From positions 5,630,066 through 5,694,065 of the forward strand of contig OZ316896.1 in assembly GCA_973895155.1 (NCBI GenBank): DNA of 64,000 bases. The letters are read 5' to 3'. Below are positions 32,270-62,611 of this stretch, piece after piece. The notes under the pieces are model-generated. The model was not told where the DNA came from and did not search any database. It worked only from the letters and a program-made list of their open reading frames with translations. Each line of letters opens with the position of its first letter. Position 1 is the stretch's first letter. Made by a program: the position numbers and the translations under genes. The DNA comes from Marsupella aquatica (lineage: Eukaryota > Plantae > Marchantiophyta).

Positions 32270-33932
32270 ACAATCCTCGTTGCCAATATTCACGTTCATG
32301 AAATGGTGTGACACCAACATTTCCTCTCTTCTTCAACCATTTAAACAAACAAGCATGATGTCATATATGTCCACAAGTTCCCAACATGGAAACAGATTCA
32401 GGCCCCATGGATATAGGCACCAAGTACACTTGTCATCTTTTTCACGAACAAATGCTGTCATAGTTTCATCATTCTTTCACTTATCAAAATATTTATCAAT
32501 ACCTTCTGCACTAGCCTCCACAATCTAGAAAAAGGGTGTTGTATCATGTAGAATCAATAATCTGCATTTGAACAAAATCTTCTGATGTTCTTTTTTTACC
32601 CACATCCCAAATCACCATTGTTGAAATTGGTAATCTCCTCGTGCAAATTTGTTATGATGAGTTGTTGAGATGCAAGCTCATTTTAAGGATGATGATTTTT
32701 TTCTTCTTTTTAAGTTCTAGCACTTGATTAGATTGACCTTCTCTGTTGGCAAGTTGTTGAGTCAACTTCTTGATTTCTTCCATCTTGTCAAATAATTGAA
32801 CCTTGTACATAATCACCTCAGAATTGGTCGCCGATTCCATAAGCCTCTTCTCTAGTGATCGTATCTTCAAATTAGCCTCTTGTAGTTTTGCCTTGTATCT
32901 TTTCATGCTGCCAGATTCACAAAGCTCAACAACATACTTTGTGCGAAGATTCTTCTCAAGCAAATCACCAATCTCTGCTCCCAAGCTCTTGCATACATGT
33001 TGCATGCTGAGCCTCTTCTTGTTAGGAGGTTTGATGTTGATTACATGAGGAGTTATGCTTCCAACCCCTGAAATATTTGGTCTTTTGTTGATGGTAGACT
33101 CCACATTGCTTGGTGTGGTTGCTGGCTCAGGCTTCACAAGGAATTGCAAAATAAGTGTCGGTTTCTCCCTTTGGTTGTGTATTCACCTTTTGCACCTCAT
33201 CCATTTTTCTTTTGCACCCCTTGTTAGAGGTCATGATTGGAACATCTTTCTTTGCACTTTTGCCTCTGTTGTTGTAATAGCATGCACTGATTTATGCACA
33301 TAATGGGTCACCATGTTGCCATCGTTGTTTTCCCAATGGTAATCCACCTTCCATTTTAGAATGAACTCGACAATCAAATATCAAAGAAAAGGAGGATAAG
33401 AAGAACTAACTTTCCCGTTTACCTTATTTGGAGCATATTCCCAAAATCTTTGTTGCCAATGCGTGGTGGCATCTCGACGTGTTAGCCTTGACATGGTAAA
33501 TTTGTCCTGTAACCACGATTTTATTGTCCATATTTTTGGATCGTCAAAAAGCTTTTTCACAAATTTGCCAAACTCTGCTTTGGGCATCAAAATCTCTAAT
33601 TCTTTAGCGTTGATTGGCCATTCATCATGAGGAGGTTTCATGTTTTCTGTTGTGATGTTCCATTCCAAATCGACACTTTCATCCTCCAACTTAGTTGGAT
33701 TTGGCAAGGGGTTCTTGTCGCCCGTACCAATGTCACAAGTATTGGGTTCAGACTCATCTTCCAACCCATTTGTTGGAGATAGCGAGTTTCCATGAATATC
33801 ATGGTCAAAGTGATCGTAATAAGCATCTTGAGCGTCTTGCATGTATAAATGATCATATTTCTCTTTTGGAACTTTTTCATCATCATCAGAATCCAAATTC
33901 CATTTTGTCATGTTTGCAAGATCTATAAACAT
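32270..33932 (-). pseudogene. Cargo gene: acidic N-terminus, coiled-coil and C-terminal RING-H2-like finger, disrupted
   Basis: ORFs 33381-33932 and 32652-33149 (heptad-rich KAKLQEANLKIRSLEKRL). Manual translation of ~32430-32310 with one frameshift gives DDKCTWCLYPWG/PESVSMLGTCGHI*HHACLFKWLKKRG. Confidence 0.6.
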
Positions 33933-34078
33933 ACAAATATATTTAGAAAAAATTCAAATATTCATGAAATGACATGGCATAATAATATGAACAAATAAGA
34001 TATCACTTTATAACAACCATGTGATTGTTTGTGACTTCATGACTTCATGTAGTAATTAGAGGGCCAAGTTTCACATGT

Positions 34079-35767
34079 CTAATCTCTAAGATAAGGACTA
34101 TTTTTGGCAAATAGTTTACAATCTGGGAATGTCCGAACCATCTTCAAACTCCAAAAGGCACAATCTTGCATTTTCTTCACCTCGGTGGCCATCATATCAC
34201 AAACCATTTCTTCCAATTTAGGATCATGCTCCAAGGCATTCCAACCCCTACCCAACCACCGTGTCCTCATAAACGCTCCATCCCAATTCTCTAAAAATAG
34301 ACTCTCAAAAATGTTGCCCAAAACATATATATCAATTGCAGCATTATACTCTATTAAGATGGGCGAACCAAGCTCTGGAGTCAATTGTGAATATTGTTTT
34401 TGATAGGCTACAACTTTATCTATAGGAGTATACCACATTTGATTCTTTGGTAGTTTGCATTGTTACTTATGTTTGGACAAGTCAAAATCATATAAGCCAA
34501 CATACACCTTGATGGCTACATCCTCCTCATAGTCAAAATGTAGAAGAATATTTTCAAAGTGAAGATCACAATGGAATCGGTTGTGGTCATGCAAATATTG
34601 CAACTTCTCAAGCAGTGCCAACACAATTCCCAATCGGTTCTCCAGAAAGAGTTTCTTTTCATAAACAAACTTGAAATCAATGTTGGAGAAACCTTGTGAT
34701 TTCCCTTTGCTATTTGACCAGAATCCGCATCTATCTATGAAGCTTCCCGAATCACCTCCATTATACTGATCATACACAAGTCTTGGTGGATCATCAATCG
34801 TCATTGCCAAAGCCCCAACAATTCTCTTATGATTTAGTCCTTCCATAAGCATTTCTTGTAATGCATCTGTTCCTCTCTTCTGCTTATTTCTTTTTTTGAA
34901 TTTTTTTGCCACTAGTGTGACATTCATCGGAATAAGTGGACAATCTAATACGTGACAAGTGTACACCTCCCCTTGCACGCCTTTTCCGATGGGATTAGCA
35001 TTTTGCACCTGCTCAGGCTTCAAGAAATGGATACTCCTCACATCCGAAAGTACACGTGATGGACATCTTTCTTTTGCATCACTTTTGATACTCACATCCC
35101 CAAACTGCATCACCTTGTTTACATATTTCATGTTGCTTTCTGCTTTTGTCATTGCCAACTCTTTACTCTAAGTTGATAACAAGTCCCTCTTGTGCTTATA
35201 CATCCCAGGATTTTCAAGCATTGTAGTATCACCCAAGCTCAATTTTGCCACCATCAAATCTCAAATAATAAACTCCAAATTCACTGCCAAATTGTCAATA
35301 AATCCAGCTGGTTTCTCCCACTCAACTACAAATGCGTCATTATGCTCTCGTGTGAAACTATCTTCATCCTCTACACTTTCACACATATAACAAGTGATCT
35401 CATTCACAAACTTCTTGTATCCTTTCAGACCGTGCTTTGTAAAATCTATCTCAAATGCATTCTCCTCATATTGCTTTGGTTGAGTGTAACGATGTAGTAC
35501 TCCTTTCCAGATCGCCACTACTGCATTAAATCGGACTTGTTTGACCTCAACATTCTTCCCTCTTCGTTTCCTCTTCCCAGTCACTTTGCCAGTAGTTGGT
35601 TTATACTCAAGAGTGTTTCGTGTATTCCTAAGTGCTTGGAGGGCCACATGATCCGGTTCAGCCCCCTCATCAAGAACTGTAGTGATTGTTTCCAGCAATA
35701 GCCTGTATTCTACACGACTAGTCGAGTCCATTGTGGCTTCACCGGAATGGTCCATCACCTTACCCAC
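34079..35767 (-). pseudogene. Cargo gene: protein kinase with an N-terminal extension (~560 codons, 3 in-frame stops)
   Basis: ORFs 35261-35767, 34463-35158 and 34079-34438 share one frame. Kinase motifs: IGKGVQGEVY, VAKK, E-helix/LNHKRIV, LQYLH, HCDLHFENILL, DFD (DFG), TPE (APE), DIYVLG. Confidence 0.88.
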
Positions 35768-39397: not shown

Positions 39398-42300
39398 CTA
39401 CTTGTGAGGCAATTGCAAAACCTGCAACGCATCACGGTGTCTAGAAAAACTCTCCAAAGGAATCACTTTGGTAAAAGCGTCAGCCGGGTTGAGTTTACCG
39501 TCAATCTTGACTAGCTCAAACATATTATCAGACACAGCTTGCCTGATAAAATGATACTTGACATCAATGTGCTTCACTCTACTGTCCATCACCTGGTTCA
39601 CAGCAAAGTGAAGCGCACTCTGACTATCACAATGGAGCTTCACATTCCCCTATGGCAATCCCATTTCAGTGATTAGTCTATCCAACCAAATCGCTTCCTT
39701 TGCTGCTTCCGCTGCTGCAACATACTCCGCTTCTGTAGTAGACTGAGCAATACACCTCTACAAGGTAGACCTCCAACTTATGCATCCACCTCCCAGTGTG
39801 AACACATAACCTGTTGTTGACCTCCTCCGATCCAGATCCTGTGCATAGTCAGCATCTATATAGCCCATCAATGATCTAGCATTATCAGCATGTGCATCAA
39901 ACAGTAGACCATGATCCACGGTACCCTTCAAATACTGAATAATCCACTTCACTGCTTCCCAGTGTACCTTCCCTGGATTTGACATGTACCTGCTCACCTT
40001 GCCCATAGCCATGGCAAGATCAGGTCTAGTACAAGTCATCAAAATACATGAGACTCCCCACTGCCTTGTCATACGGAACCTTTGACATCAACCCCTTTTC
40101 TGTGTCATCCGTAGGACAGAAAGCTGATGACAACTTGAAGTGTGGAGCCAACGGGGTACTTACTGACTTGCTATCCCCCATGTTGAACCTTGCAATTACC
40201 TTCCTTGCATAACTGCCCTGCGTCAACCATAGCTTACCAGCCTTCAAGTCCCTAGTGATCTCCATACCCAAAATTCTCTTAGCTGGCCCTAAGTCCTTCA
40301 TCTTAAACTCTGCACTAAGCAGTGCTTTGAGCTTAACAATCTCAGACCTATCCTTGGCCACAATAAACATGTCATCCACATAAAGTACTAAAACAATGAA
40401 CCCAAAAACAACATTCTTCACCGGTTTAAGATACACACATGGGTCAAACACACTCCTGTGAAAGCCTTGTGCATGGATCCAATCATCAAACCACTTATTC
40501 CATTGTCTTGGTGACTGCTTCAACCCGTACAAGGATCTCAGCAATCTGCAAACCAAATCCTCTTGCCCTTTCTTCACAAAACCTAACGGCTATCTCATGA
40601 AGATCAACTCTTCCACGGTGCCATAGAGGAAAGCTGTGACAACATCCATCTGATCTAGCAGCAGACCAAACATAACAACAAGCACACACAATAGCCGTAT
40701 TGTTGAGTACTTAGCAACTGGTGAGAAGATCGACCTCATTGTAATCCACACCTTTTTCCTGTGTGAATCCTTTGGCTACCAACCTAGCCTTGTAGACCTT
40801 CGATCCACCTCATGTGGACTGATTCTTCAACTTGTATATCCACTTGCAATCCACCACTTGCTGTCCCTCAGGCAGCTTGACAAGCTCCCAAGTTTTGTTG
40901 TCCTTCAGTGACTGCATCTCCGTTTGCATTGCTACAGTCCACTCCTGCTTCTCCTTTGAAGCACTTGTTTCATGAAATGAAGAAGGTTCCCTTTCTTCCA
41001 AAATCAACGCATCACCCTCATCATCAGTAAAAAAGTCCTCCTCTTGCAACTGAGATGAATTAACCCATTGTCCATACCTTGGTGGAGCGCGTACAGTGCG
41101 ACCAGATGTTCTTCTAGCCGATGACTCCGGTTGATCTGCGTGTGCTGGTATAATTTGAAGCTCAGCAACATCCACTTGCTACTCACCAGCATCAACAAAC
41201 TCCTCTGGTTCCTCTGGCACAGGAACCAACTCCATAATTGGAGCAACTCCTTCTCTCCGGTCATGCACCTCATGACCAATCTTCCCCTCAACAAGATCCA
41301 GGATAGGAGATTTTTCTTTGTCAGCACGGGAGACCTGAGTATTCTCCCCCTCTTTCAATAATCTGGATTCATTGAAGGAAACATCCCTACTGACAACGAG
41401 CTTACAGGCAATAGGATCCCATAGCCTATAGGCTTTCACACCACTCTGGTACCCAAGAAAAACACATTTCTTGGAGGTAGGATCCAACTTGGTCCTATTC
41501 TGCTTCGGTGTGAGAGCATATGCATCACTTCCAAAAACTACCAAGCCATGATAGTCTGCTTGCCGCTTATAGCGCATCTCAAACGACGTTTTGAAATTGA
41601 TAGCACTAGAAGGAGAAAGATTTATCAAATAAGCTGCGGTATTCACAGCTTCTGCCCAAAATTCCTGTGGTAAACCTGATTGGCTCAACATACTCCGTGA
41701 CCGCTCCAATAGTGTCCGATTGAGCCTTTTAGCGACACCATTCTACTGCGGAGTATAAACTATGGTGAGATGACGAGTTATCCCCTGTTCTGAACAGTAC
41801 TCTTCAAATTCCGTTGAAGTGTACTCCCCGCCGTTGTCTGACCTTAGACTCTTCACCCTTGTATCCAAACACTTGATTGTATTTTCAGTCTGATTCTCCA
41901 TCTAGGCCTTCCACTTCTTAAAAATGGATAAGACGTCAGACTTATGCGTCATGAAATGAATCCACACAAATCTTGAGTAATCATCAATAAATGATACATA
42001 GTACAACTTTCCAGAATGTGAGGAAGTCGGGGATGGATCCCACACGTCACTATGTATGTACTCAAGAACCGCTTTAGAATTATGAGTTCCAACACCGAAA
42101 GCACAACGATGCTGCTTTCCAAGAATGCAATGCTTACAAAACTCTAATTTACAAGATTGCAAATCAGAAATGAGTCCATTCTTCCGTAAGATAGCCAAAC
42201 CCTTCTCACTCATGTGGCCTAACCGTGAATGTCACAGTTGAGTCATCTCCTCGTGAGACTTGGTTACATTGGCCTCTCCACATATAGTATTGCCCTGTAA

Positions 42301-43715
42301 CACATACAAATTCTTCTGTCTGCTCCCCTTCAAAATCACTGTCTCTCCCGACCTGACTTGAAGTTCACCATCAATAACGCTCCATTGATGACCATTTGAA
42401 TCCAACACACCGAGTGAAATCAGATTCTTACGCATGTCAGGTACATACCTGACTTCGGACACTGTGCGCACAGCGCCATCAAACATTTGAATCTTCACAG
42501 ACCCAATTCCCTCAATTTGATAGGAGTGATCATTTTCCATCAGAACTGAACTGTTTGAAACAGAGTAAGAACTGAAAAACTCACGAATGTAACAAATATG
42601 AAAAGAGCAAGCACAATCAAGAATCCACACATCATCTACTCCCCTAGATGACGTGCACAGGGCATACCCCCGGCTTCATAAAACATACTCATCATTGAGT
42701 AAATCAGCTTCTCCATCAAGCCTAGCCACATTTGTCGATGAAGATTCCGCTGCCTTTCCCTTACAGTCTCGCTTGAAGTGTCCAACTTGGTTGCACTTCC
42801 AACATGTCACTTGCCTCCTCTGAGGGGATTTACCCCTGGACTTAGATCTGGATTTAGATCTAAACTGGGTTCTACGGTCTCCAGTTGGTCGTTGCATACT
42901 CCTCCCACGGTTAATATTGAGGGCAGCACCAGATGATGAAGGCTGTGACGTGATGTACATCTTCTACTGAAGATCATCACTAAGCAGAGAACTTACCACG
43001 TCATTGTATGAAATGGTATCCCTATCACGATACAACAACACTCGTGATAGGGACTGGTAAGATGGAGGCAATGAACTGAGAAGCTGCAGAGCCTTCGTCT
43101 CATCATTCAAAGTCTCCCCAAGATTTTCCAAGTCAATGACCATGTCGTTGAAAGCATCCACATGGTCTTGTAACTTTGTACCAGATTCCTTTATCCTGAA
43201 ACTCATCAGTTTGTAGGAAGTGTAGAGCCGGTTTGATAACTCCTTGCGGTGATACTTGCTCTGCAATTCCGCAAACAAGGACATGCAATCCTTATGTGCA
43301 CCCAACTGCTTGATGATGGGAGGCATGAGATAGAGTGTAACAACCACACTCCCTGCTCCTGCATGCGGTCCCATTGTTTCTCATCAACATCATCTTCACG
43401 AGGGCTCAGCAGTTGGCCCATCCCTGACGCATAGAGCACTCCCTTCACCTGCTTCTCCCATAGCAAGTAGTCAGAGCGCCCATCATACTTTGTCACTTCA
43501 TACTTGGGACCCCCAAGCTTGAAAGTCCCCATCTTCTTCTTTGGCACTACTGTGAGCTCTAGTAGTAGTACTGCTTCCTCCACCACACGCCGCACCAATG
43601 ATGGTACCGGTGTCACGTGCTCTTCCTCCTGCTCCTCTCTCTGTCCCTCTAACCACCGCGGTGATCCTCGTGCTTCAAGTTCCACGTCTTCAAAAAACTC
43701 CTCCGAATCACTCAT
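39398..43715 (-). pseudogene. gag-pol: Copia A gag-pol, with multiple stops and frameshifts
   Basis: YDGRSDYLLW (gag), CWKCNQVGHFKRDC (zinc knuckle), WILDCAC (protease), CKHC...IHSDVW...FIDDYSR (integrase), LYGLKQSPRQW and LYVDDM (RT), CDSQSA...KHIDVKYHFIR (RNase H). Confidence 0.95.
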
Positions 43716-45610: not shown

Positions 45611-46234
45611 GGCTCCACTACCACGAAGTGAGAGAAATGATGCTGAAAAACATGAATGCATAGCCTCTTAAGTTCTCCTCATGTTCTCGGGGGTCTCACT
45701 CCGCAAAAATCTCATATCACGTGCGACGAAGTATAGGGTCCGTTAATTGGGTTTCTCGGAAGACTTAAGAAGATTTGTGTAAGAACAATAGGGCCAACTT
45801 TATATGTTGGACAACTTGTAAGAATAATAGGGATATTAATATTTTTGACTTTGTAGATGGAAGGCATACAAAGAAGTTAGGGGGTCTTTGTGTCGGACTA
45901 TGTAAAGTACACGTGTCACTATGTCATTGGTACACGTGGCACACATAACATTCCCAATATATTTTCCTAATTTTTCTAATATGTTAACATGGCAAGAATT
46001 TGAGAATGATCTGGTTTTATGGGGACTCACGTTTAGGGTTTGACCAGGATTAAGTTTGAAATTTTTCTGTTTAACGTGTCTCGTTTACCTCAATTGGCCC
46101 TTGTCAGTCTCCTCCCGTGTCGTTTCCCTCCACTGTCCCTTTGGCCCCACCCGCTCTTTGCCTCAACAGAGTCTCTTTTGTTTGTACCTTGCAGCAAATG
46201 GTCTAAACGGGGTCTAAACCAGTTGTGCTCCTGC

Positions 46235-47015
46235 TTGGAGTGAAGGTCGGATCGAGCGAGAGTGTGCTCTCGACTACACTGTTGCTGGAGTGAAGGATCG
46301 ACTCCTGTTGTGCTCTCGACTGCACTGCTGCTGCGGCTGGAGTGAAGGATCGAGCTGCATTGCTGCTGCGGCTGGAGTGAAGGATCAAGCTACGGCTGGA
46401 GTGAAGGATCGAGCTGCGGCTGGAGTGAAGGATCGAGCTGCGTTGCTGCTGCGGCTGGAGTGAAGGATCAAGCAAGATTTCTCGGAGAAGGATCGAGCTG
46501 CGTTGCTGCTGCGGCTGGAGTGAAAGATCAAGCAAGAGTTCTCGGCGAAGGATCGAGCGAAGGAGTGAAGGGGAGAGCGAGAGTGAAGGGGAGAGCGAGA
46601 GTTCTCGGCGAAGGATCGAGCGAAGGATCGAGTGAAGCGCTGCTACTTGGAGTGAAGGGGAGAGCGAGAGTGTTGCGCTCTCGGCTGTGCTGCTGCCGTT
46701 GCAGCTTGAAGTGAAGGATCGACCAAGAGTTCCTGGCTGCGCTGCTGTTTAGAGTGAAGGGAAGAGCGAGACATCTCAGCTGCGCTGCTGCTTAGAGTGA
46801 AGGGGAGAGCGAGACTTCTCAGTTGCGTGCGCTGATTAGAGTGAAGGGGAGAGCGAGACTTCTCAGTTGCGTGTGCTGATTAGAGTGAAGGGGAGAGCGA
46901 GACTTTGCAGCTGCGCTGCTGCTTGAAGTGAACCCGGGAGTGAAGGGGAGAGCGAGACTTTGCAGCTGCGTTGCTGCTTGAAGTGAACCCGGGAGTGAAG
47001 GATCGAGCAAGAGTG
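46235..47015. repeat. Complex subterminal tandem array inside the P-like element
   Basis: More than 20 copies of (g)gagtgaaggatcga / gagtgaaggggagagcgaga cores interspersed with gctgctgc tracts. Confidence 0.9.
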
Positions 47016-48247
47016 TTGCGCTCCGGGAGGTGGGTGTCGAGAGTGTTGCATTGCTGCTTTCTAAAACGGGAGCTGCTAGCTTGCTGAAACGGGAGGTGGC
47101 TACTGTAGGGAGTGTTGCAATATCTCAAACCGGAGTGCCAGGATTGGAGCTGCATTGCTGCGTTGCTCAATCGGGAGGTAGGCGCTGCCTACTTTGACGA
47201 TCGTACTTGCTTGCTTGCTACTATTTGACGCCCAAATCTATCACGCATGGCACACCTAGAGTCGATCTGGTAGCGGTCATAGACGAGAAGCACCTGATCT
47301 GCCCGTTTAGCTTTTCAGCTATAAAATTCCTGTTCTGAGCTCCGTGAATGGCGATAAGCTCTTTGAGTATTTTGTCCTCCAGAGCTCGCCATGCCCTCGC
47401 AGATAAGGTTTGGAGCCACTGCTGAGATCCAGCTCCAACTTCCCAGCCGAATACTAGCTCAGTATTGTCATCATTTGTCTCGACGTTGTCCATACTCATC
47501 TCTCCTTCTGTGTCTGCATCGACGACTTGACGCACATGTTTTTTGGATGCATCGTTAGAGTAACCGCGAGTACAGGTCTCCAATGATTGCACTTGCCATG
47601 ATTGACCACCTTACATGATCTCCATCCGTGGGCTGGACCCCAGGAAAAAAATCTTGTAACTTGACTTCTGTCGTCCCCCACACACCCGCACAAATCTGGT
47701 TCTCTATTACATGCCTTGGTGTCCCGTTGGCTGGTTCCTGCAATTTTCTTTAAGTCATCTAGAAGAGAAGACTTCTTTAAGTGTTTACTCAGCCAGGGGG
47801 GACCACAGCCTCCAGCCATACTGGGTGGCGGGCCTGGTCAAGACGTGGATGACGCTCGTGCTTGATTTTAAATTCTCTTTTGTTTCTCAAGCTTCTGGGC
47901 AAGGGCATTACCATTCTGGATTCTGAACTTGATCCTATTCAGGTTAGCTATTCAGGTCTGTTGAGCGATTGGGTTATTATTTTATTGCTGTAGTAACATG
48001 CATGGCCAATTGGTTGTCTTCATGTAATGGGAAGTTTTTGAAACTTAGAAATTGAATGGTGGTTTCAATTTTGTTCACAGGTTGCAAAAGGAATTGTAGA
48101 GGTTGTCATCAGCGCTTGCAGCAGTGAGCACCAACACTTGCGGTGAAGCAGTTTGCTAGAACACATAGGGTACCTAGTGAATTGTAAGTTGCCTGTCATT
48201 GCACGTCTAATCGTCTGGCCATTCACCGAGTATAAAAAAATAGTGCC

Positions 48248-48646
48248 ATGGCTATATTGGGCATTACATTAGAAGCGAATTATGAGAAGCTCCTTCTGCA
48301 GCATCCAGATGAATGCTGCTGGTGTGAACCTTGTGTCAAGTGCAGGGTTGGTGATGGGAATTTTGAATGGTTCCATTGCTTCTGCTTGAAAATGCGTGGA
48401 AGGCTTGTTACTAGGACATACATGGGAAAGCATGGCAAAGTTGTCACACGTCGTTGGAAGTGCTCTTGTATAAGGCCAACCATTTGGCCTCAAAATGAGT
48501 GTCTTTTACGCAAGATTGTCATCCCGGACACGCTTGACATTGTAGTCCCTGATAGTATTCCACATTCAACTGAGCTTGATATTGTAGCCCCAGATAGTAT
48601 TCCAGATCAAGCTAAGGTTACAACCCATGGATGCTTGACATTGTAG
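48248..48646 (+). CDS. Small ORF with an ING-like PHD-finger pattern and a short acidic repeat (132 aa)
   Basis: CCWC...VKC...EWFHCFCL...WKCSC resembles the C4HC3 PHD with the ING-type EWFH motif, though ligand spacing is imperfect. LDIV(V/A)PDSIP is repeated. Confidence 0.5.
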   Translation: MAILGITLEANYEKLLLQHPDECCWCEPCVKCRVGDGNFEWFHCFCLKMRGRLVTRTYMGKHGKVVTRRWKCSCIRPTIWPQNECLLRKIVIPDTLDIVVPDSIPHSTELDIVAPDSIPDQAKVTTHGCLTL

Positions 48647-48962
48647 TCCCTGATAGTACATGGATGCGTTGTTCATATATGACTAGGCCTTTGTTTGCAA
48701 GGCTGCAATTGTACCATCCATGATATATGAGAATATTTTTCATTCCCATTATGTGGCAAAGTTTTGCAAGCTGGCATTGTATTTATGTATGTCTTGGTTG
48801 GTGGGTGTTCAGGTTGCACTGTGTAGTTGACTTCATCTGGGAGGGAGGTTTGCAGATCATTGGAGCAGGTGCTATGATTAACCTTATCTTTGTCTATGGA
48901 TTGCTCACTATCATCATGTCCCCCTCATATGTGATGTGCTTTGTGATGATTGCAGTTGAACC

Positions 48963-49637
48963 ATGCCGACAAGGACTTCAAACATAAAGAAAGCAACACA
49001 GTCCTCTGACAGAGGAGCCTCTTTGGAAGAGGTATTGCATATTCCGTTGTTCTCTGAGCAAGAGATTCTACAAACTAGCCCTCATGTTTGTGCAATTTGT
49101 GAGCATGGTGGGAAGTTGGTAATTTGTGATGGGCCATGTCACAGGCAATTTCATTATGTGGTTGGAGATGAAGCCCCTAATGACTCTTGCCCCTGTGTAG
49201 TCCTTCCCCTCCATCATGGAGGGAAGCCATGGTTTTGCCCAAATTGTAACCAGGACCAGGCCATGTGTTATGGGTGCCGCACTGTGGGACCGTCACCTAC
49301 AATTGTGCGAAAATGCTCTGATCGTTTTTGTGTACGATTTTATTGCTTTGGGTGTTTGGTAGCTGATGCAAAGTCCTGCCCACTGCATACATGTGTGACA
49401 TGTTATCAGAGTCTTGAGGGTCAGATGGTCAAGAACATGGTACAATGTCTACGATGTCCAAATGCCTGGCATACAGATTGTCTCCAGATGATCAAAAGCA
49501 AAGGGTTCGCTCATGATAGGGACATCTGGGACCATGAAGCACATGGACAACAGCGACAGATGTTTTATTGCCCCCGTCATCCTATTGATCCACACCTCAA
49601 GACTCCAATCAGGGACCACATTTCATGGCTCCAGTGA
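48963..49637 (+). CDS. Stand-alone EDM2-type (NSD-like) composite PHD-finger protein, 224 aa, uninterrupted
   Basis: VCAICEHGGKLVICDGPCHRQFH...WFCPNC...CYGC...C...C.RFYC..C...CPLHTCVTC...CLRCPNAWH..CL...RQMFYCPRHPIDPHLKTPIRDH follows the plant EDM2 PHD region as I recall it (CAICDNGG...FCPNC...CPLHKC...CRRCPKSYH...LIYC..H.ID..L.TP.RDH). Confidence 0.85.
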   Translation: MPTRTSNIKKATQSSDRGASLEEVLHIPLFSEQEILQTSPHVCAICEHGGKLVICDGPCHRQFHYVVGDEAPNDSCPCVVLPLHHGGKPWFCPNCNQDQAMCYGCRTVGPSPTIVRKCSDRFCVRFYCFGCLVADAKSCPLHTCVTCYQSLEGQMVKNMVQCLRCPNAWHTDCLQMIKSKGFAHDRDIWDHEAHGQQRQMFYCPRHPIDPHLKTPIRDHISWLQ

Positions 49638-50132
49638 TCTGAATAATGAACAAACCTATTACTTAGGTTTCAACGTCTTAGTGGGGTATGAGCAAGGCAC
49701 ATACTTAAGGTGCATCATGGGTGGTAGTACCCAATTTTATTAGTGTTGACATTTTGTCATAATTAAGGTCACTAATAGTGCTGCATTTTGATGAGCAGAA
49801 GCACTAAACTTCGGGAATTGTTAGAAAAGCAGGTGAAAAGGATATTTTGTCCAAAGATATTTTATCCAACTTTAGCGGTATATCATGATTTTCACTGAAT
49901 ACATTTGCATGTATGATGGATTGCATTATAAAGTGTTTTGGCCTATTAGCACTTCTATTGTTAAATGTATGCTGACATTATGTACATTACATGAGAATGT
50001 GTATGTTGTCATTGCATCTCTTGAAGATCCTAATGTGTTTCCCTTGTGTGTATTTCAAATGTATTTGTGCAGGTCTTTCTGTTATCAACTCCAAAAGCAA
50101 TGGTGCTATGCATGTTCTAGATTTGTATTGCA

Positions 50133-53100
50133 ATGGCAGCCCCTAAACCCAACTCTGTTAAATTAATACGCAAAGTTGGGGATGACAAGGCTGATTTACC
50201 AATTTGTGTTTTGTCATTCAAAGAAGGACACACCCTACATGATTTTAGGGCTCGTATTGCCTCTACTCTAGACTTTGACTTTGATTTTTGGGATGAGAGA
50301 CTTCCTGGTCGAGTGAAACTTGTACATGAGAAATTAATTGATCTGTCTGAGCTGGATGGAAGAGTTATTGTTGTACAACAAGAACTTGGAGATGGTGGGA
50401 GGATCCCACCAGTACCCTGTCATCCTTGCACTCCTGCATCATTGGGTCCAAATACTGGGACACCACAACTGGGGCCAACGGCACTAGCACCCTCCCCTGT
50501 AAGGGCTTCTTTTGAGTCACAATTGATGGGAGATGTCCCATCAAAGCTATGGAAAGATGAGTGGATGAGGTTAGAGAAATGGGTACATAAGAAGGGTTAT
50601 GGTGATCACAATTGGAGAATTCGTACCTGGGATGAAGGGACAGATGTTCGAGGGCATCTGGAGTGTCTTGAATGTAGGGAAACTTATGGCAATGCAGACA
50701 ACTCTCAGAACCCTAAATCCATCTCCAATTGCTTTAGTAATTTTAAGACCAAACACTTGGTCTTCAATAAGCACAAGGATAACTATTGTCGGAGAAGGGG
50801 CATTCCTTCTACTTTGGTTCAGGTAGCAGACATCTCTGAGAAGCCAGAATATGATCATGCAGACGCCATCAAAGTAGGTGTTGAGATAGTTCAGCGATTG
50901 AATGCTGAGCTTGGGGATGATGGCAAACTATTCTCTATTGTTCCTGATCCCAGTACTCCTGAGTATGTAAACAGGTCTTTCCTGTTTAAGGTTCGCTGTA
51001 CTGTCTGTGGAATGCTTCACACTGACTTGTGCCCCAAGAAGCTTACCTTGGAGCCCAATTTGAGGACACACTTAGTGAGTCGAGATCACTTGGATGCATT
51101 GGAGACTAGGCATGACACAAAAATGCTTGCCTTGAGGTCTGGGAAGAGGGGCAGGCCAAAGAGGACTGATTCTAGGGACCTACATCCTGGTCAGAGCGGG
51201 ATTTTGAAGTTCTTTAAAGATGATGGGTCCCGGACAGGCAGCAGTTCAGGTTCAGGTGTGTGTGAATCTGTTGATCTTGGTCTGAGTTTGCTTTGCTGGG
51301 GATTATGGGTAGAGAGAGGTGTGCCTCGACTGTTATGGAAGGGTATATCTTATGATATTTCTGGCATTTTAGATGATCAGTCTGGGGGAATTACATGGCA
51401 TTGTGAGCCAAGTTGTTGCTTGGATGTTTTCCATCCAAGTAGAGAGAGTGTTGTGAGTATAGCAGGCTGTTTTAGACACAAGGATTGCTTGAGGTTATCA
51501 CAGAATGGAGGAGGATTTGAAAATCTAACTTGTAGTGAATGTGATTCTATAACACTAGAAGATGATTTTCGTGGACGGGTGCACAGGGAAGCGGAAGCAG
51601 TAGTCCACAGAGGGAGCCGAACCACTGCTGGTGGTATACGTTTGGATTATTTGACCAACACAGAGTTAAGAGATCAAGTGCACAACCTGAACTCTGTGCG
51701 ACGAAAAGAGCGTTGGTTGTTAGCTTTGCAGGCTCAGAAAGTATGTGCCTTGAGCACCAGGAAATGAAAACTAGAGGAGTTGTTAGGAGTTGCAGCAGAC
51801 AGGAAGGATTTGAGATTGTTTCTTAGGAGTATTTTGAATGGACACAGGAATGGTGCATTTGGTGGTAAGGAGGGTTTGTGGGATTTCTTGAAGGATGTAG
51901 CTCGCAATTTAGGCAGGAAGCCAAAAGGTAATCGTTACAGTAATAGGACTCGAGCTATTGCTCAGGCTATGTTCCAATTTGGGGGCCGTCAAGTTGCTCA
52001 TTGTTTTGCACGAAACTTGACAGCCCCTAGCCTTGTGACCCTAAAACGTGATAGAGCAAAACTCACACCTTTTCGAACCGGGTTACGGAAGGAAACCTTT
52101 CAGGAGATTGCTAGAGTGTTGTCTGCTGCAAAGCACTCATTGGGCATTGAGGGGGATGTGCCTGTTATCTTTGCTGAGGATGAAACAAGGATCAAAGAAC
52201 GCCCTAGGTAATTGGAACTGGACATTTTTCCAATTGTTTTTTTAATGACTTTACAAGTAGCACTTGGGTGGAATTGCTGTCATATTGAAAAATTGCATGT
52301 CTGTGTTTCAGGTGGGAGGCAAAGTATGATACTCTCATTGGTTTCTGTGGACCTTCAGAGCAGCATGTATGCTCCTATGGTTTGGAAATTCTAGTAGGTG
52401 AAGGTGATGAGGGGTATGATAAAATTGTAAGTACATTTGAACAATGCCCCAAGTGCATGTATGCCCCAAGTGCATGTATGAGTCCTTACCTAAATTGGCT
52501 GTGTGTGCACTTCCAACTTGTAATAAGTTCACAGCTTCTTGGGTACGAGAGCATTGGGTCCAGTTAAAGGCTTTTTGGGATGAATATTGTAGAGCTATGG
52601 TAGGCCCTTTGCTTGGACATGCTAGTGATGGTGATGCACGTCGCCGAAAGCTGATGCTGGAAGATTACAGAGGGCAGAATGGATCATACCCAAGGTATGG
52701 AGTTGGGTGGGAAGGGTGGACATACTCTGTGTCAATTCTACCAAATGGAGATTTGTATGGCTTTGGTGACCAAGACCAACCTCATAATGGGAAAAAGATG
52801 ATAAACCCCTTAGACAGAGTGTCTTCTTTACTGGTGCTAGGAGATCAACATGCATCTTTATCTTATGTAGCTAATGTCTACAATCATTATCCAATTCATG
52901 AACATGGCATGGCTTGGGATGATGTGAATAGGACTGACCGGCAGAATTGGGCAGGTCCACAACGAATAGCAGCAAGAAGAGTGCAGCAATGTCTGAAAGA
53001 TATGTATGAGAGGAGAGATGTACAACATGAACGAAGTTTAGGAACTCAGTTGTACTTGGAGATTTGTGCAGATTACTTAGATATTTTCTTTTCTCCAGTT

Positions 53101-54690
53101 CATGATTTGAGGTCCCGTATTGTGTTAGCATCCAAGGTTTCATTCTTTCTACGTTTGTGGAGATTGTGGTTGAGGTTTGGTGACCATTCAGTGGGTGGGA
53201 ACTTTGCAGCACACACTGAGAAAGACATGATGTCTATTCAGGCTTTTCATGATGTTAACATGTCATGTCATTTCATTGTGCTGTTAATTTGTGCCTTTCG
53301 AGATAAGTTCCCACATCTAGGTGTTCCCTTCCACTTGCTAGGTTCAGATTGTTGTGAGATTTTCTTCAGCAAGGTAGGAGGCATGAGTGGCCATGAGCGG
53401 AATTATGATTTTGGCTCTCTGTTGGATAGTGCTGTTGGACTGAACCGGCTTGCTGCCCTAGAATATGGACCAGAAGGCTTGAAGATAGGTCGTTCACATA
53501 AGAAACAAGATCATGTATGGGGGAAGATTCATCCTATAGGGGAAGGGGAGGAAGCACCAAATCTACTTGACTATTCTCTCATTGAGACTAATGAATTAGT
53601 GGTTGCAGCCCTTAAAGAAGGTTTTGTTGCTGCTAAGGATCTTATGCATCAATTGCAGATGTCTCCACGAAGTTCCTTACCAGCAGCTAGAAAGAGATGG
53701 TGGACATGTCCTTGGGTTATGGAAAGTGAGACCTGGCCACTAGAGGTGGTTCTGAAGGAAGCAATTGTTTGCAATGATTCTGAGGAGCAAGTAGAGCACC
53801 AACCACCAGACATAGGTCCTCGCCCAACTGGAGATTTTCATGAATTGGAAGATCCTGAGGATGATTTGAATAGAATAGATGCATGGTTAACAGAACCAGA
53901 TCCCATTGTTGTTCCTGAGATGCATTCAGATGATGTACACAGAGATGATATACAGTTTGATGTAGACCCCTCAGATGAGCTTGAGACATTAGGTCATGAA
54001 GTTCGGCATGTGTTTGGATCAGTTGTCCATGCTGTAACTAATGTACAGAATCGTACCAAGGTAGTGCCTACTGTTGCTTATGAAGGCAAGGTGATTTACA
54101 AATCCACTCTGGTAAGCCAGTTGGTAGGAAATCCGCATTTGTCAAAAGATAGGCTGACAAGGGTGAAACAAGTGCTATACTATAGTACTGGCAAGAGAAA
54201 AGTGCAAGAAGTCAATCCTAACTCATGTTTTGTTGATGTTGGCACTGATTGTGCAATTGCATTTGAGTCTGATGATAGTCCTGCTCCAAGTACTAGATTT
54301 GGAAAAAGAAAGAGAGGAAAGAATAAGGTTGTGGTGGAGGCAATCTCAGCAGGTAAGAAATATTTTTGGTTGGGTCGGATTGTCCAAATGAGACAGAAGT
54401 ATGGCAGTAGGTGGGGCAATTGTCGGTCACCAATTGATTTGATGGATAGGCCAACTCCACTTGCAGGGCAATCAGGTAACATTTGTGAACTGTTGTTAAA
54501 TTGGTATAGTCCTATTGGTAAGAGCAAAAGTGAATTCAGATATGATACCACTGATTTGAAATGGATGGATATTGAAATGGTCATTGCTAGTGTTAGTTTA
54601 ACCATGAAAGAAGGGGTTATGGATCGTATCTATGTGTTGGATCCAATAGATAGACGTGCTTTGGATCAGTATCTTCAAACAATGGTATGA
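50133..54690 (+). pseudogene. Large P-element-type DDE transposase (~1480 codons), one intron, two lesions
   Basis: ORFs 50133-51767 and 51780-52211 are in frame across a TGA. Intron 52208-52311 (GT..AG) joins to give IFAEDETRIKERPRWEAKYDTLIGFCG. Catalytic candidates: D 52179, ASDGD 52627, DxxH (DQPH) 52774, DRQN, SDCCEIFFS E 53356. There is a frameshift at a 17-bp duplication (52444-52477). Confidence 0.8.
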
Positions 54691-55560
54691 ATATCATGTT
54701 ACTGTTTAGTTTTTGAGAGTCTGTATATATGTTTTATTTTGTTGTTTAGTTTTTGAGAGTCTGTATATATGTTTTATTTTGTTAATATTAGTGGGTGTAG
54801 TGGGATAGGATAGGGGGTGACGGATTGGCAACTTGAGATCCTTTCTCAATTAGGGGTTCAATTCCCCTCCGTCACATGTTACATCTCTCAACATAAGTTT
54901 TAAATGGAGTATGGATGGAGCATGGGATTGGTGATCAATGGGTGGAATGGATTATTTATGTTGTGACCTTAAAGGCCATCCCACTTATGCACGTAAGGTT
55001 TATATTGGGATGACCTTTTAGGTACACAATATAAATGATGCATTGAAATGATCAAAGTTTAAGGTCGACAAAGGTGCAAGAACTGTTGCAGGGCGTGTCA
55101 TGTCTGACATACGACTTCACAAGGTACTGACATAGACTTATCTTTTCTTTCTAGGCATTTTATATTGATATGTGACACTTTACTTCACAAATTATAGGGG
55201 CAATACAATTTGGATTTTAGACTCTTAGAAGAAAGAAAGAGGGAGGAAAAAAAATTTCAACTTAATAAGTATGGGGGTCTAGGCATGAAAACGTCGCATG
55301 TGATGGGGGGGTCCTCCATATAGTGAGACCCCCGAGCTCATGTTTTTCTTTCCTAGGTTTATGGTTTTTATTGAAAGGAGTGTCATTCATAAGGCACCCT
55401 GAGTTAAGTGCACACATCTTAGCATCGTTTGACTGTACCTTTTCTTGGTCACTGTGCTTTTCTTGGCAGATACTTTACTTATATAACAACACTTCTATGC
55501 TCTCATATTTTATTTACTTTCAGATCACTACAAGACAAAAAATAAAGCATGTTCTAGGAT

Positions 55561-57243
55561 CACTAGTACATTTTACCTCCTTTTTCCGATTCTCTCCACA
55601 TCGGATGCCTTTGTAAAATAAAATTTGAAAAACCATATATCCGATACTACTAGCATCGCAACATGCCATTTTAATAGTATCGGATATCGACAATCGGACT
55701 TCTATCGGAAAGTCCGATGGTGGGAGAATGGGAAAGTCCGATGGTGGGAGAATGGGAAAGTCCGATGCTAGGAGAATGAGAAAGTCCGATGGTGAGAGAA
55801 TGGGAAAGTCCGATGCTAGGAGAATGGGAAAGTCCGATGGTGAGAGAATGGGAAAGTCCGATGCTAGGAGAATGGGAAAGTCCGAAGCAATCAAAATGGG
55901 ATATGCATGTCAGCGGACGCGACATGCTCAGGTCACCCATCTCTTCCTTTAATTGGGTTTCTACTTTCATTTGGAACTATGAGCTAGGTGCCCATCTCCC
56001 TTGACATGTGAACTCTTCAAATTTTCTCAACTAATTGGTCACCCATCCCAATTGCTATTCCTCCAACATGAGCTTAACTTTGTGGTTCTTATTCCTTACA
56101 TTGTACATGCAAGCTTAGCACTTTTGTTGTTTGACTTAGAGTGTTTGGGGATTTTATACACTTGTGAGTTTACTAAGACCCATAATTTGGACCCATTCTT
56201 GATCCATTTTTCTCTATCATGCGATTAGATCTTTGCATCAAGTGACCTATTCTAGTTACCCTATTACATTCCCCTAGGAGAAACCAATAGAAATCTGGCA
56301 GGGGTCATTCATCGATAGTAAAGCCCTCCTTCATTAGATTTGATATAGGATAATTATGGCTTATTAGTTATGGATGATATTTTGGTCCTTCCAAAGCCTC
56401 AGCGTCAATGGCTCCTGATTGTCTCATCTTTTATCAACTATGTTGTTGTTGGACTTGCAACAAAGACTACATGGGACAAGCAACCTCCTTCTAGATGATG
56501 TATTTTGGACTTGGCATGTTGAGCACATATTTCCGTAAGGGAACAATATGTTGGGTCTTGGAATGAGGCAAAAACAACACTCAAGTCCATTTGCCTCAAG
56601 TATGAAGTTATTCATGCATGCAAGAATGATTGCATCTTTTGGGAAGAGTATGTCGGTGCAACCACATACCCCATCTAACACATCAAAACTTTTCATTCTA
56701 ACACAATCAAAAAATTTCTTTTTGTCATAACCAGACTTTCCCATACTCCCAGCATCGGACTTTCCCATTCTTCTAGCATCGGACTTTCCCATACTCCCAG
56801 CATCGGACTTTCCCATTCTTCCAGCATCGGACTTTCCCATTCTTCTAGCATCGGACTTTCCCATACTCCCAGCATCGGACTTTCCCATTCTCCCAACATC
56901 GGACTTTGCCATGTTAGCACAATCGGATATAATATCCGTTATTATTAACTACGAAAAGTTTCTGATCAATATTGTAACGCACATCATTTTTGTTACAAAA
57001 AACATCGGACATATCAATCAAAGTTTCTGTTGAGGGATCCGATGTGTTTTCTAACGGATATAATCCGTTTTTTAACGCATCGGAAAGGTTCCGTTGTCAA
57101 TTATATCGGAAATGAAGGTATTCGAAGCCGAGAGTATGGCATATTGCCATTTTTTGATAATCGGAATTTCCGATGCTAAAAGAATCGGACGCCGATTGTT
57201 CACAAAAATTAAGCATCGGAAATCAGCTTAATATGTACTAGTG
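55561..57243. mobile_element. Non-autonomous CACTA (En/Spm) element, 1.68 kb
   Basis: 11-bp TIR CACTAGTACAT at both ends and a 3-bp TSD GAT (55558-55560, 57244-57246). Inverted arrays of a 24-bp unit (gagaatgggaaagtccgatg...) lie at ~55705-55885 and ~56733-56910. Many subterminal ATCGGA/TCCGAT motifs. No transposase. Confidence 0.93.
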
Positions 57244-58253: not shown

Positions 58254-58447
58254 AACTCCCCCTTGACTCTAGTCTTGGGGACTGCAATTTCTGCTATCCA
58301 TATGAGATACTCAGCGGGAAATTCTAGACAATCACCTAAAACCATAGGTGTCCCCCTAAAAACCATTTAAGGTTAACTAAGGGTTAACTAGAATTAAGCC
58401 GTAGCCATAACAGGATTGAGTAACCCATATACAGAAATTACATATTG

Positions 58448-61400
58448 TTAAGTTACTCTACTTGTGCTGCAAATGCAAAACTTGCAAGTAGCACGGTGTC
58501 TTGAGTAACTCTCCAAAGGAATCACTTTGGTAAAAGCATCAGCCGGGTTGAGCTTTCCATCAATCTTGACTAGCTCAAACATTTTATCAGACACTGCTTG
58601 CCTAATAAAATGGTACCTGATGTCAATGTGTTTCACCCTACTATCCATAACCTGGTTAATAGCTAGGTGAAGCGCACTTTGGCTGTCACAATGAAGAGTC
58701 ATTTTTCCATGCTCCAATCCCATCTCAGTGACCAGCTTATCCAACCAAATTGCTTCCTTTGCTGCTTCTGCTGCTGCAACATATTCTGCTTCTGTAGTAG
58801 ATTGAGATACACACTTCTGCAAGGTAGATCTCCAACTTATGCATCCTCTTCCAAGAGTAAACACATACCCAGTCGTTGACCTCCTTGTTTCCAGACAGCC
58901 TCCGTAGTCAGAATCTACATAGCCAACCAAAGATTTGGTTTTGTTTGATCTACTATCAAACAACAGACCATAGTCTATTGTGCCCTTAAGATACCTGAGA
59001 ATCCATTTTACAGCCTCCCAATGTACCTTCCCTGGATTTGACATGAATCTACTCACTTTGCCCATTGCTAGGGCTAGATCAGGCCTGGTACATGTCATCA
59101 AATACATTAGACTGCCCACTGCCTTCTCATATGGAACCTTAGTCATCAAACCTCTCTCCACTGGATCCGTGGGGCAGAAAGCCGATGATAACTTGAAATA
59201 TGGAGCCAAAGGAATACTTATTGGCTTACAATTTTCCATGTTGAATCTTGCAAGTACCTTTTCAGCATACTTGCCTTGATTCAACCACAACTGTCCAGTT
59301 TCAAAGTTCCTCGTAATCTCCATACCTAAGATCCTCTTGGCTTTCCCAAGATCCTTCATTCGGAATTCAGAACTCAATTTTGCTTTGAGTTTGTCAACCT
59401 CAGTTTGATCCTTAGCCACAATCAACATGTCATCCACATAGAGCACCAGAATGAGCAAACCAAACACACCATTCTTGACTGATTTTGTATACACACAAAG
59501 GTCATACACCATCCTAGTGAATCCTTGTGCAAGCATGAAATCATCAAACCGCTTGTTCCACTGCCGAGGAGCTTGCTTCAATCCATACAAGGACTTAAGT
59601 AACCTGCAAACTAAACTCTCTTGGCCCTTCTTCACAAAGCCCAGTGGTTGCCTCATGAAAATTTGTTCCTCCAAGGTGCCATAGAGAAAAGCAGTAACAA
59701 CATCCATTTGATCTAACACCAGATCAAAAAACACAACAAGTTGACACAAAATTCGTATCGTGGAATACTTGGCAACTGGAGAGAAGACCTCATTGTAATC
59801 CACTCCCTTCTCTTGAGTGAATCCCTTGGCAACAAGCCTTGCCTTGTATATCTTGTCTCCTCCATCTGAAGAGTTGTCCTTCAGCTTGTAAATCCACTTG
59901 CTATCCACCACTTGTTGATCACTTGGCAGCTGCACCAGCTCCCATGTTCTATTGTCACTTAAAGATTGCAACTCCCTCTGCATCGCTGCATTCCATTCAT
60001 CTTTCTCGTCTGAAATGCACGCCTCATGATAAGAAGAAGGTTCTCCTTATTCCAAGATCAGTGCTCTGTCATCATCATCAGGTGCAATGTCAACATCATC
60101 TAACCTTGATGAATCTGTCCATTGTCCATACCTTGTAGGAGCTCGAGTAGTACGTCTCGATTTTCTAGCTGATGATTCTGGTTGATCTTGTTCTGTTGGT
60201 TGAATTTGAGGTATTCCATCAACAGCCTACTCCTCTTGTTCCATTACCGGAACCAACTCCATTCTCGGAGCACCTCCTTCATTTATGTCATGAAAACTCT
60301 CATGACCAATCTCCCCCACAACATGGTCCAGGATAGGAGATTTATCTTTGTCAGTACGGGAAGCCTGAGCATTATCCCCCTCCTTTGATGATCTGGATTC
60401 ATTAAAGGATACATCTCTACTGACAAGCAACGTACAAGCTTTTGGATCCCATACCTTGTAACCTTTCACACCTGGTTGATAACCAAGAAAAAGACACTTC
60501 TTGGAAGTAGAATCTAGTTTAGATCGATTCTGCTTAGGTGTGAGAGCATATGCATCACTTCCAAAGACTCTCACAACCTGATAGTCTGCGTGCCGTCCAT
60601 ACCTCATTTCAAACGGCGTCTTGAAATTGATTGCACTTGAAGGAGAAAGATTTACCAAATAAGCTGCCATATTTATAGCTTCAGCCCAAAATTCATGCGG
60701 TAAACCTGATTGGCTCAACATACTCCTCGATCGCTCCAATAGTATTCGGTTTAGCCGCTCACAAACACCATTCTGTTGAGGAGTATAAACTGTCGTGAGA
60801 TGACGAGTAATCCCTTGCTCTGCACAATATAGTTCAAGCTCACTTGAACTGTACTCCCCGCCGTTATCTGATCGCAGATATCTCATCTTGGATCCAGTCT
60901 GATTCTCAATTTGGGTTTTCCACTTCTTAAAAGTGCCAAAAACTTCAGACTTGGCGTGTAGAAATGTGATCCACACATACCGTGAGTAATCATCAATGAA
61001 CGTAACATAGTACAATTTTCCAGAAAGTGAGGGAGTTGGGGCTGGACCCCACACATCACTATGTACATACTCAAGTATAGCTTTGGTATTGTGAGTTCCA
61101 ACACCAAAGGTTCTCCTGTGCTGCTTCCCAAGCACACAGTGTTCACAAAAATCTAGCTTAGTAGATTCCAAATTAGAAAGAAGTCCTTTCCTGCGAAGTA
61201 CCGCCAAACCCCTTTCACTCATGTGTCCCAATCTGCAGTGCCATAACTGAGTCATCTCGCCTTGAGATCTAGTTACATTGGCTTCTTCACAAATCACGTT
61301 GCCCTCCAACAAATATAGATTCCTGTGCCGCTTACCCTTCATGACAACCTTGCCTCCGGTTGACACTTGAAGAATACTATCAGCAGAACTCCACCGACAT

Positions 61401-61684
61401 CCATTTGCTTCTAGCATTCCAAGAGAAATCAAGTTCTTTTTCATGTCAGGTATGTGTCTGACATTACTCACTGTTTGCACAGCTCCATCAAACATCCGAA
61501 TTTTCACGGATCCAATTCCAACAATTTGACAAGGATGGTCATTCCCCATCAACACGGAACCGGTTGATACTGAGTAAGAAGTAAAAAACTCTTTTATACA
61601 ACAAATATGATAGGTACAGGCACAATCTAAAATCCATTGATCACCGTTGTTACTGGATGAAATGCAAAGGGCAACATCTGGACT
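58448..61684 (-). pseudogene. pol: Copia B pol (PR-IN-RT-RNaseH), with two stops in the IN-RT linker and a terminal frameshift
   Basis: [70 protein letters not shown]. Stops: TAG at 60229-60227 and TAA at ~60050. Confidence 0.95.
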
Positions 61685-62611
61685 TCACAAGATTTCATCA
61701 TCAAGCAAGTCAATCATATCAAGATTAGTGGCTGCGTTCGCTGATGGTTGATGAGTCTGCTTGACTCGACAGTCTCGTTTCATGTGGCCAGGCTTGTTAC
61801 ATTTCCAGCATATAATTGGTTTCCTTTCTAGAGATTTCTCTCTAGACCTGGATCTAGACTTAGACCGAGCCTTCTCCTTGCCTCTATTTCGTGAGGGGTA
61901 CGTTTGTGAAAAGGATCTGTTTTCACCAGTCATCCGCTGTTGAGTCCTCCCGTGGTTCACATTCAATGCACTGCCAGATGAAGATGGTGTCTGGACATGA
62001 TCCAGTTTCTTCTGTGCATCATCTGACAACAAAGAGCTTACCACCTCATCATATGAAATGGTTTTGAGATCTCTATACAAGAGAACCTGCTTCAAACCTT
62101 GATACGATGGGGGTAAGGAACTGAGAAGAAGCAATGCCTTATCTTCATCTTCCACTCCCTTGCCAAGATTTGACAAATCTACAGCTAGGCTGTCGAATTC
62201 ATCCAAGTGATCTCGAAGTTTGCCTCCTTCTTTTAGTCTCAAGCTCATCAAGAGAGACTTCTTGTACAACCGATCTGAGGCATCCTCTCGGTAGTACTTC
62301 TCTCTGAGGGCCTTGAATAAGGATACGCAATCCTCGTAGTCGTCCAGCTTCTTAATGATATGCGGCTTCAGATACAGCATAACCGCATTCACAGCAATCA
62401 CTTGCTCTTGCCTCCATTTCCTCAACGGGATCTCCTCCTCACTGCTAGACTCCTCCCGAGTCGATAGCAGATGATCTAGGCCCATAGCACGAAAAATTCC
62501 CTTAACCTGCTTCTCCCATAGCAAATAATCTGTGCGTCCATCATATTTTTCCACCTCAAACTTGACACCTCCAAACTTGGATGCCATCGTTGTCCTCCCA
62601 ACGTTCTCCAC
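61685..62611 (-). CDS. gag: Copia B Gag, open 308-aa frame
   Basis: KFEVEKYDGRTDYLLW, DKALLLLSSLPPSY (UBN2-like), and the CWKCNKPGHMKRDC zinc knuckle. Confidence 0.9.
   Translation of the reverse strand: MENVGRTTMASKFGGVKFEVEKYDGRTDYLLWEKQVKGIFRAMGLDHLLSTREESSSEEEIPLRKWRQEQVIAVNAVMLYLKPHIIKKLDDYEDCVSLFKALREKYYREDASDRLYKKSLLMSLRLKEGGKLRDHLDEFDSLAVDLSNLGKGVEDEDKALLLLSSLPPSYQGLKQVLLYRDLKTISYDEVVSSLLSDDAQKKLDHVQTPSSSGSALNVNHGRTQQRMTGENRSFSQTYPSRNRGKEKARSKSRSRSREKSLERKPIICWKCNKPGHMKRDCRVKQTHQPSANAATNLDMIDLLDDEIL

Follow-up and report, generated by a model that had tools for sequence, protein, structure and literature searches.

A broken P-related transposon copy in the liverwort Marsupella aquatica, with a predicted BAH-like transposase tail and a PHD-only gene between its ends

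We analysed 64,000 nt of the Marsupella aquatica genome (assembly GCA_973895155.1, contig OZ316896.1, positions 5,630,066 to 5,694,065, forward strand), hereafter the window, and found in it a broken copy of a cut-and-paste transposon of 9651 bp. The copy encodes a predicted P-type transposase with a BAH-like tail and, upstream of it, a PHD-only protein that is the likely accessory chromatin reader; the chances for and against this reading as a whole appear to us evenly balanced. The ends, the target site duplication (TSD), the gene order, the catalytic motifs and two lesions in the transposase gene can be seen directly in the DNA. The PHD gene and the predicted tail likely let such elements read host chromatin. 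The features, including the terminal inverted repeats (TIRs) and open reading frames (ORFs), are as follows, in window positions.

45686–55336: transposon copy, 9651 bp, ends set by a shifted-boundary scan
45678–45685: left 8-bp TSD copy, host DNA, identical to 55337–55344
45686–45700 (+): left 15-bp TIR, which starts with CTC, has a G run inside and ends with CACT
45718–45725 (+): left subterminal 8-bp motif, 17 nt inside the TIR
about 46220–47100 (+): GC-rich, CpG-retaining array of 12–60-bp repeat units
48248–48646 (+): 132-aa Cys/His-rich ORF, with a candidate 3' splice site at 48080
48963–49637 (+): intact 224-aa EDM2/NSD-type PHD-only gene (Pfam PHDvar_NSD, E 5.8e-8; NSD2, E 4.6e-6)
50133–52207 (+): transposase exon 1, with two CxxC..H..H fingers, an HxxC..CxxC motif, a coiled coil and the first catalytic Asp
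51765–51767 (+): premature stop in exon 1
52208–52311 (+): predicted 104-nt GT-AG intron, a gap against intact relatives
52312–54690 (+): transposase exon 2, with the RNase H core, the P-type helical insertion, the second Asp, DxxH and SDxxE
52444–52480 (+): frameshift at a 17-bp tandem duplication in the transposase
54220–54690 (+): C-terminal beta-barrel domain, predicted BAH-like
55295–55302 (−): right subterminal motif, 19 nt inside the TIR, one mismatch
55322–55336 (−): right 15-bp TIR, perfect complement of the left one; the element ends in a 3' G
55337–55344: right 8-bp TSD copy

The sequence-only reading of the window had placed 21-bp TIRs starting with CATG at 45680 and 55342. An inverted repeat pair does lie there (19 of 21 positions complementary), but CATG is not its start. 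With those boundaries the flanks matched at only 5/7 or 5/8 bases, and when the boundaries were moved 6 bases inward at both ends, a perfect 15-mer TIR with exact 8-mer flanks was obtained, a flank match expected by chance at about 2e-5. CATG is the palindromic core of the TSD, not the element start, and was mistaken for part of the TIR because it is the centre of the target site. The anticipated 7–8-bp TSD was found to be 8 bp, exact in three of the four elements with both ends (45686–55336, a small element at 16494–17578 of the window, and metagenome locus L004) and absent in the fourth, locus L001. Further loci, L001 and L004 among them, also end in the TIR motif: in L004, TIRs of this kind lie at 192 and 6287 and are flanked by an exact 8-bp TSD of its own, and in L001 both ends are present (308 and 9065), at which no TSD was found. 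As judged from these ends, the end type is a family trait.

Elements of the P superfamily terminate in 5'-CA...TG-3'. The CA-type termini expected earlier were not recovered here, since the TSD-defined ends start with CTC or CTT. Thirteen of the 14 element ends listed start with CT or CC, and the one that starts with CAC has no TSD support; the terminal C/G pair is kept despite the non-CA ends. The subterminal 8-bp motif lay 17–20 nt inside the TIR at 11/14 ends (at most two mismatches; background 0.0165), a figure that is partly circular because the motif was derived from the same ends on which it was scored. A combined scan for the bipartite end gave 19 matches, a few of them inside ORFs, compared with 0–5 in ten base shuffles. 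The motif is likely a putative transposase-binding site.

The transposase of about 1480 codons, as first read, was confirmed (intact relatives are 1423–1530 aa long), and so were its motifs, D...D...DxxH...SDxxE. The C-terminal 749 aa as query yielded 103 relatives among 7997 candidates. Nine longer relatives were obtained among 4429 candidates, six of them 1423–1530 aa long and 40–42% identical, and intact natural ORFs exist (P0104–P0109). With its premature stop and frameshift, the present copy cannot encode the enzyme. The predicted intron has the same position in locus L006 and is missing in L001 and L004. Among the other loci, L037 carried an apparent inverted N-terminal transposase piece 3' of the core (3006–3581, −), and the two contig ends of L021 carried an inverted repeat longer than 500 bp, which may be an assembly artefact.

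A DxxH motif after the second Asp defines the P superfamily, and in our alignment its Asp and His were each present in 71/71 rows. The catalytic residues were likewise conserved (first Asp 55/55, second Asp 69/71, Glu 74/74), and a relative's predicted model showed the split RNase H fold together with the helical, GTP-binding insertion of the P type, so the proposed P-type catalytic fold was supported. At position −3 from the last catalytic Glu, 67/74 rows had an Asp, and this pair matches D528/E531 by spacing (numbering from the accessible text of PMC7776569). The GTP contacts given there are K385, K400, V401, S409, F443, D444 and N447; by spacing only, the family has Asn/Trp at 400/401, Ser at 409 in 22/71, Asp or Glu at 444 in 61/72 and no Asn at 447. 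The element is almost certainly a P-related transposon. We class it as a lineage related to P and working in the same way, and not as a canonical member, because one defining feature, the CA termini, was looked for and is lacking.

The proposal of a land-plant family also held, with named relatives in Riccia, Calypogeia and Adiantum; two animals, Desmophyllum (a coral) and Nymphon (a sea spider), also supplied named relatives. A quick tree was built of family members only (71 of 74 rows, three short rows dropped), and in it the window transposase grouped with four Riccia sorocarpa and two other proteins (SH-aLRT 97). The next sister was a Calypogeia clade (97), and all fell within a 32-row clade holding every named plant row (100), a placement that makes a liverwort or other bryophyte host likely. 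We regard this divergent P-related family, which occurs in early-diverging land plants and in some marine animals, as real. It is unlikely, in our judgement, that it is simply a P subgroup catalogued in Repbase or Dfam and ordinary save for a chance passenger. The coral and sea spider members, the one member above the Pfam TNP-like_RNaseH_N cut-off and a 'P-Fungi' label in the accessible part of the printed literature agree with such a subgroup; P elements are described from rust fungi and Allomyces in the accessible text of PMC5751038. However, the named relatives are almost all annotated as hypothetical or uncharacterized, and full-text literature searches, covering listings and abstract openings, turned up no land-plant P elements, BAH-bearing P transposase or transposon EDM2-type gene, nor did the accessible text of PMC8226300 and PMC5718144 have anything relevant, although bryophyte and fern transposable element (TE) tables, Repbase, Dfam and subscription journals lay outside that search and may list the family.

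At the N-terminus, two CxxC..H..H fingers were present in the window transposase and 7/9 long relatives, one finger in the other two, and the HxxC..CxxC motif in 9/9. For THAP there was no Pfam match, and the C2CH spacing was absent in the window and 7/9 long relatives. The N-terminal model was of low confidence (pTM 0.33), and its fold search gave no clear match and listed no THAP row. The sequences thus lean towards the absence of an N-terminal THAP domain. In the model, the first 65 transposase residues (50154–50345) fold into a small, conserved alpha/beta domain that looks, by eye, ubiquitin-like.

The C-terminal domain of the transposase is probably BAH-like, as modelled. At the W-x-x-R and W-[YF] positions, which would belong to a BAH aromatic cage for methyl-lysine, aromatics were common; the next position was non-aromatic. 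This tail, which the sequence-only reading had overlooked, would be a more general reader candidate than the PHD gene. Other domains were seen in distant members: a C-terminal PTM/DIR17-like Tudor domain in P0084 and P0089 (E 1.6e-8 and 9.7e-10), an N-terminal Ulp1 protease in P0097 and a C1 domain in P0111. In the accessible text of PMC12477816, a Gypsy element is presented as the first TE for which a Tudor domain was reported.

As first described, a GC-rich repeat array and three ORFs, all on the + strand, lie between the TIRs. The observed/expected CpG ratio was 0.82 over 45686–47500 compared with 0.23–0.37 in the ORFs. The array had no Rfam match and is likely a promoter or leader. The 132-aa ORF had been called PHD-like, a label that found no backing: it had no Pfam match, no usable Atlas match, YNG1 only at E 2.6 and no significant relative among 304 fetched proteins. 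It would at best be a decayed ING-type PHD piece, which is unsupported.

The EDM2-type PHD ORF, on the other hand, was verified as an NSD/EDM2-type gene. Its stop follows directly after the PHD module, and it has neither the N-terminal RFD domain nor a long C-terminal part; RFD was found in 6/26 scanned PHD relatives, all of at least 851 aa. Six stand-alone PHD relatives of 213–304 aa were 44–83% identical and had near-identical start and end positions. A search among 1.84 billion representatives gave 264 matches, of which the nearest named long ones were PHD proteins of Marchantia, Riccia and Calypogeia and EDM2 of Selaginella. A quick tree was computed from 66 of the 144 usable rows (157 in total), namely every short row, every named row and the 30 best of the other long ones; in it, 14 short proteins formed their own long-branched clade (SH-aLRT 95), in whose printed rows the acidic residues before the first Cys are missing. 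The CpG depletion of the PHD gene equals that of the transposase. The clade placement, the shared boundaries and the CpG depletion would fit a long-resident transposon gene.

Other results weigh against this. The first-proposed multi-gene lineage, in which transposition is paired with histone-mark readers, may exist, but the PHD gene was absent from 49/49 related metagenome loci, including the two with both ends, although these loci are distant relatives (L001 and L004, 41%) and the window's own clade was not reached by this test. In L004 (6.1 kb) only the transposase lies between the TIRs, and L001 has a different 174-aa ORF without a Pfam match inside its TIRs, 3' of the transposase (7003–7524). 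The PHD gene within TIRs was thus observed in this one copy. Passive acquisition, by Pack-type capture or nested insertion, of an EDM2-like PHD fragment and a junk ORF by a single-gene P-related transposon would account for the missing gene in both complete relatives, the 132-aa ORF without relatives and the varying passengers, with no role in transposition. However, its stand-alone clade, the shared boundaries and one relative at 83% show that the PHD gene is no recent fragment of the host; it shares its CpG depletion with the transposase, and no convincing inner TIR pair surrounds it among the 25 longest inverted repeats listed. We hold passive cargo to be possible, on the less probable side, and give a slight edge over even to the PHD gene being a maintained part of a sublineage.

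According to the reading that we prefer, the N-terminal zinc fingers would bind the subterminal motif in place of THAP, and a transposase dimer would pair the ends and insert them with an 8-bp stagger. GTP would probably be used, because the 3'-terminal G is retained, as is the Asp at −3 from the last catalytic Glu; P transposases require GTP and cleave the element ends with a 17-nt stagger. The BAH-like tail may contact nucleosomes and bias target capture. The PHD-only gene would derive from an EDM2-type host gene and be kept by a liverwort-type sublineage, where its product may aid transcription and processing of the downstream transposase in silenced chromatin, which is also where host EDM2 works. 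The host protein binds H3K9me2 and, together with ASI1 (a BAH protein), promotes the use of distal rather than proximal polyadenylation sites (accessible text of PMC7529245 and PMC7472560). In the present element, three ORFs follow a CpG-rich leader on one strand and the transposase comes last; we favour a role of the PHD gene in keeping the element expressed, speculative as this is and well short of an even chance. The PHD protein has none of the other EDM2 domains and might equally be a decoy, tether or passenger. A role in target choice, with the PHD protein as a second subunit tethering the transpososome to marked nucleosomes, is very unlikely. BAH and PHD readers are paired in solved host modules (ORC1b BAH-PHD, Ash1L PHD-BAH), and the accessible text of PMC12477816 connects chromatin readers on integrases with targeted insertion; L004, however, which lacks the PHD gene, has transposed, leaving an exact TSD, so the gene is dispensable. 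The broadest version of our preferred reading is a doubtful one: an undescribed THAP-less P-type branch in liverworts, ferns and marine animals would carry a BAH reader on its transposase, and a liverwort-type sublineage would have co-opted the reader module of host EDM2, a heterochromatin-readthrough factor, as an accessory gene to stay expressed when silenced.

Elsewhere in the window, a separate 1085-bp non-coding element (16494–17578) shared the bipartite ends and was flanked by its own exact 8-bp TSD (16486–16493 = 17579–17586). Its left end was located by a TSD search over 17.5 kb upstream, in which one of two matches was followed by the end motif. Save for one 29-bp match, it had no internal DNA similarity to the large element, nor any coding likeness to it, and it is non-autonomous. 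A further loose bipartite-end match near 5318 (−) may be due to chance. Two inverted 24-bp repeat arrays (55707–55885 and 56734–56912), about 850 bp apart, adjoin the right side of the large element and are probably a separate foldback-type element. ORF translations revealed two Copia-like long terminal repeat (LTR) retrotransposon remnants (about 40000–43700 and 58400–62600, −). An AT-rich, CpG-poor ORF cluster with a divergent protein kinase (32652–35767, −; Pfam E 2.9e-11) is possibly another mobile element, and 24221–26140 (+) is a host amino-acid transporter gene (Aa_trans, E 3.1e-33).

Repeat annotations of bryophytes and ferns may miss this family, which is hardly visible to Pfam. A P-type enzyme with other ends and fingers tests how general the parts of the GTP-dependent P mechanism are, and the intact P0104–P0109 ORFs are possible tools. 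If true, a transposase with a BAH domain would open a new way of guiding insertion by chromatin, and the element-borne EDM2 module would be a new counter-silencing strategy at RNA processing.

Compared with Drosophila P and THAP9 (PDB 6P5A, 6PE2; Pfam TNP-like PF21787–PF21789), at 12–15% identity over the aligned core, the present ends are CTC/CCC and not CA, with a TIR of 15 bp. The C-terminus of P is an all-helical domain (accessible text of PMC7776569), whereas a beta-barrel is predicted here. The transposase is also much longer (about 1480 aa), C2H2-type fingers were found and THAP was not, and this copy has an extra gene inside its TIRs.

VANDAL elements are Mutator-type, and a Mutator-type transposase with a VANC-type anti-silencing gene is not what we found here. 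VANDAL21 with VANC21 is likewise a DNA transposon with an extra gene possibly acting on its own chromatin (accessible text of PMC8616336), but VANC causes sequence-specific hypomethylation and is not a PHD protein, and any anti-silencing activity of the present element would be putative. With EDM2 of the AAE complex and the bryophyte EDM2-like PHD proteins, the PHD gene shares the NSD-type tandem PHD module, which ends in the same DH-I motif; unlike them, it encodes 224 aa of PHD only, without RFD or a long C-terminal part, belongs to a separate fast-evolving clade and lacks the acidic residues before the first Cys. The chromodomain and Tudor Gypsy integrases likewise have a chromatin-reader fold on the C-terminus of a DDE enzyme (accessible text of PMC12477816); those elements are LTR retrotransposons, whereas here the predicted BAH-like domain sits on a DNA transposase.
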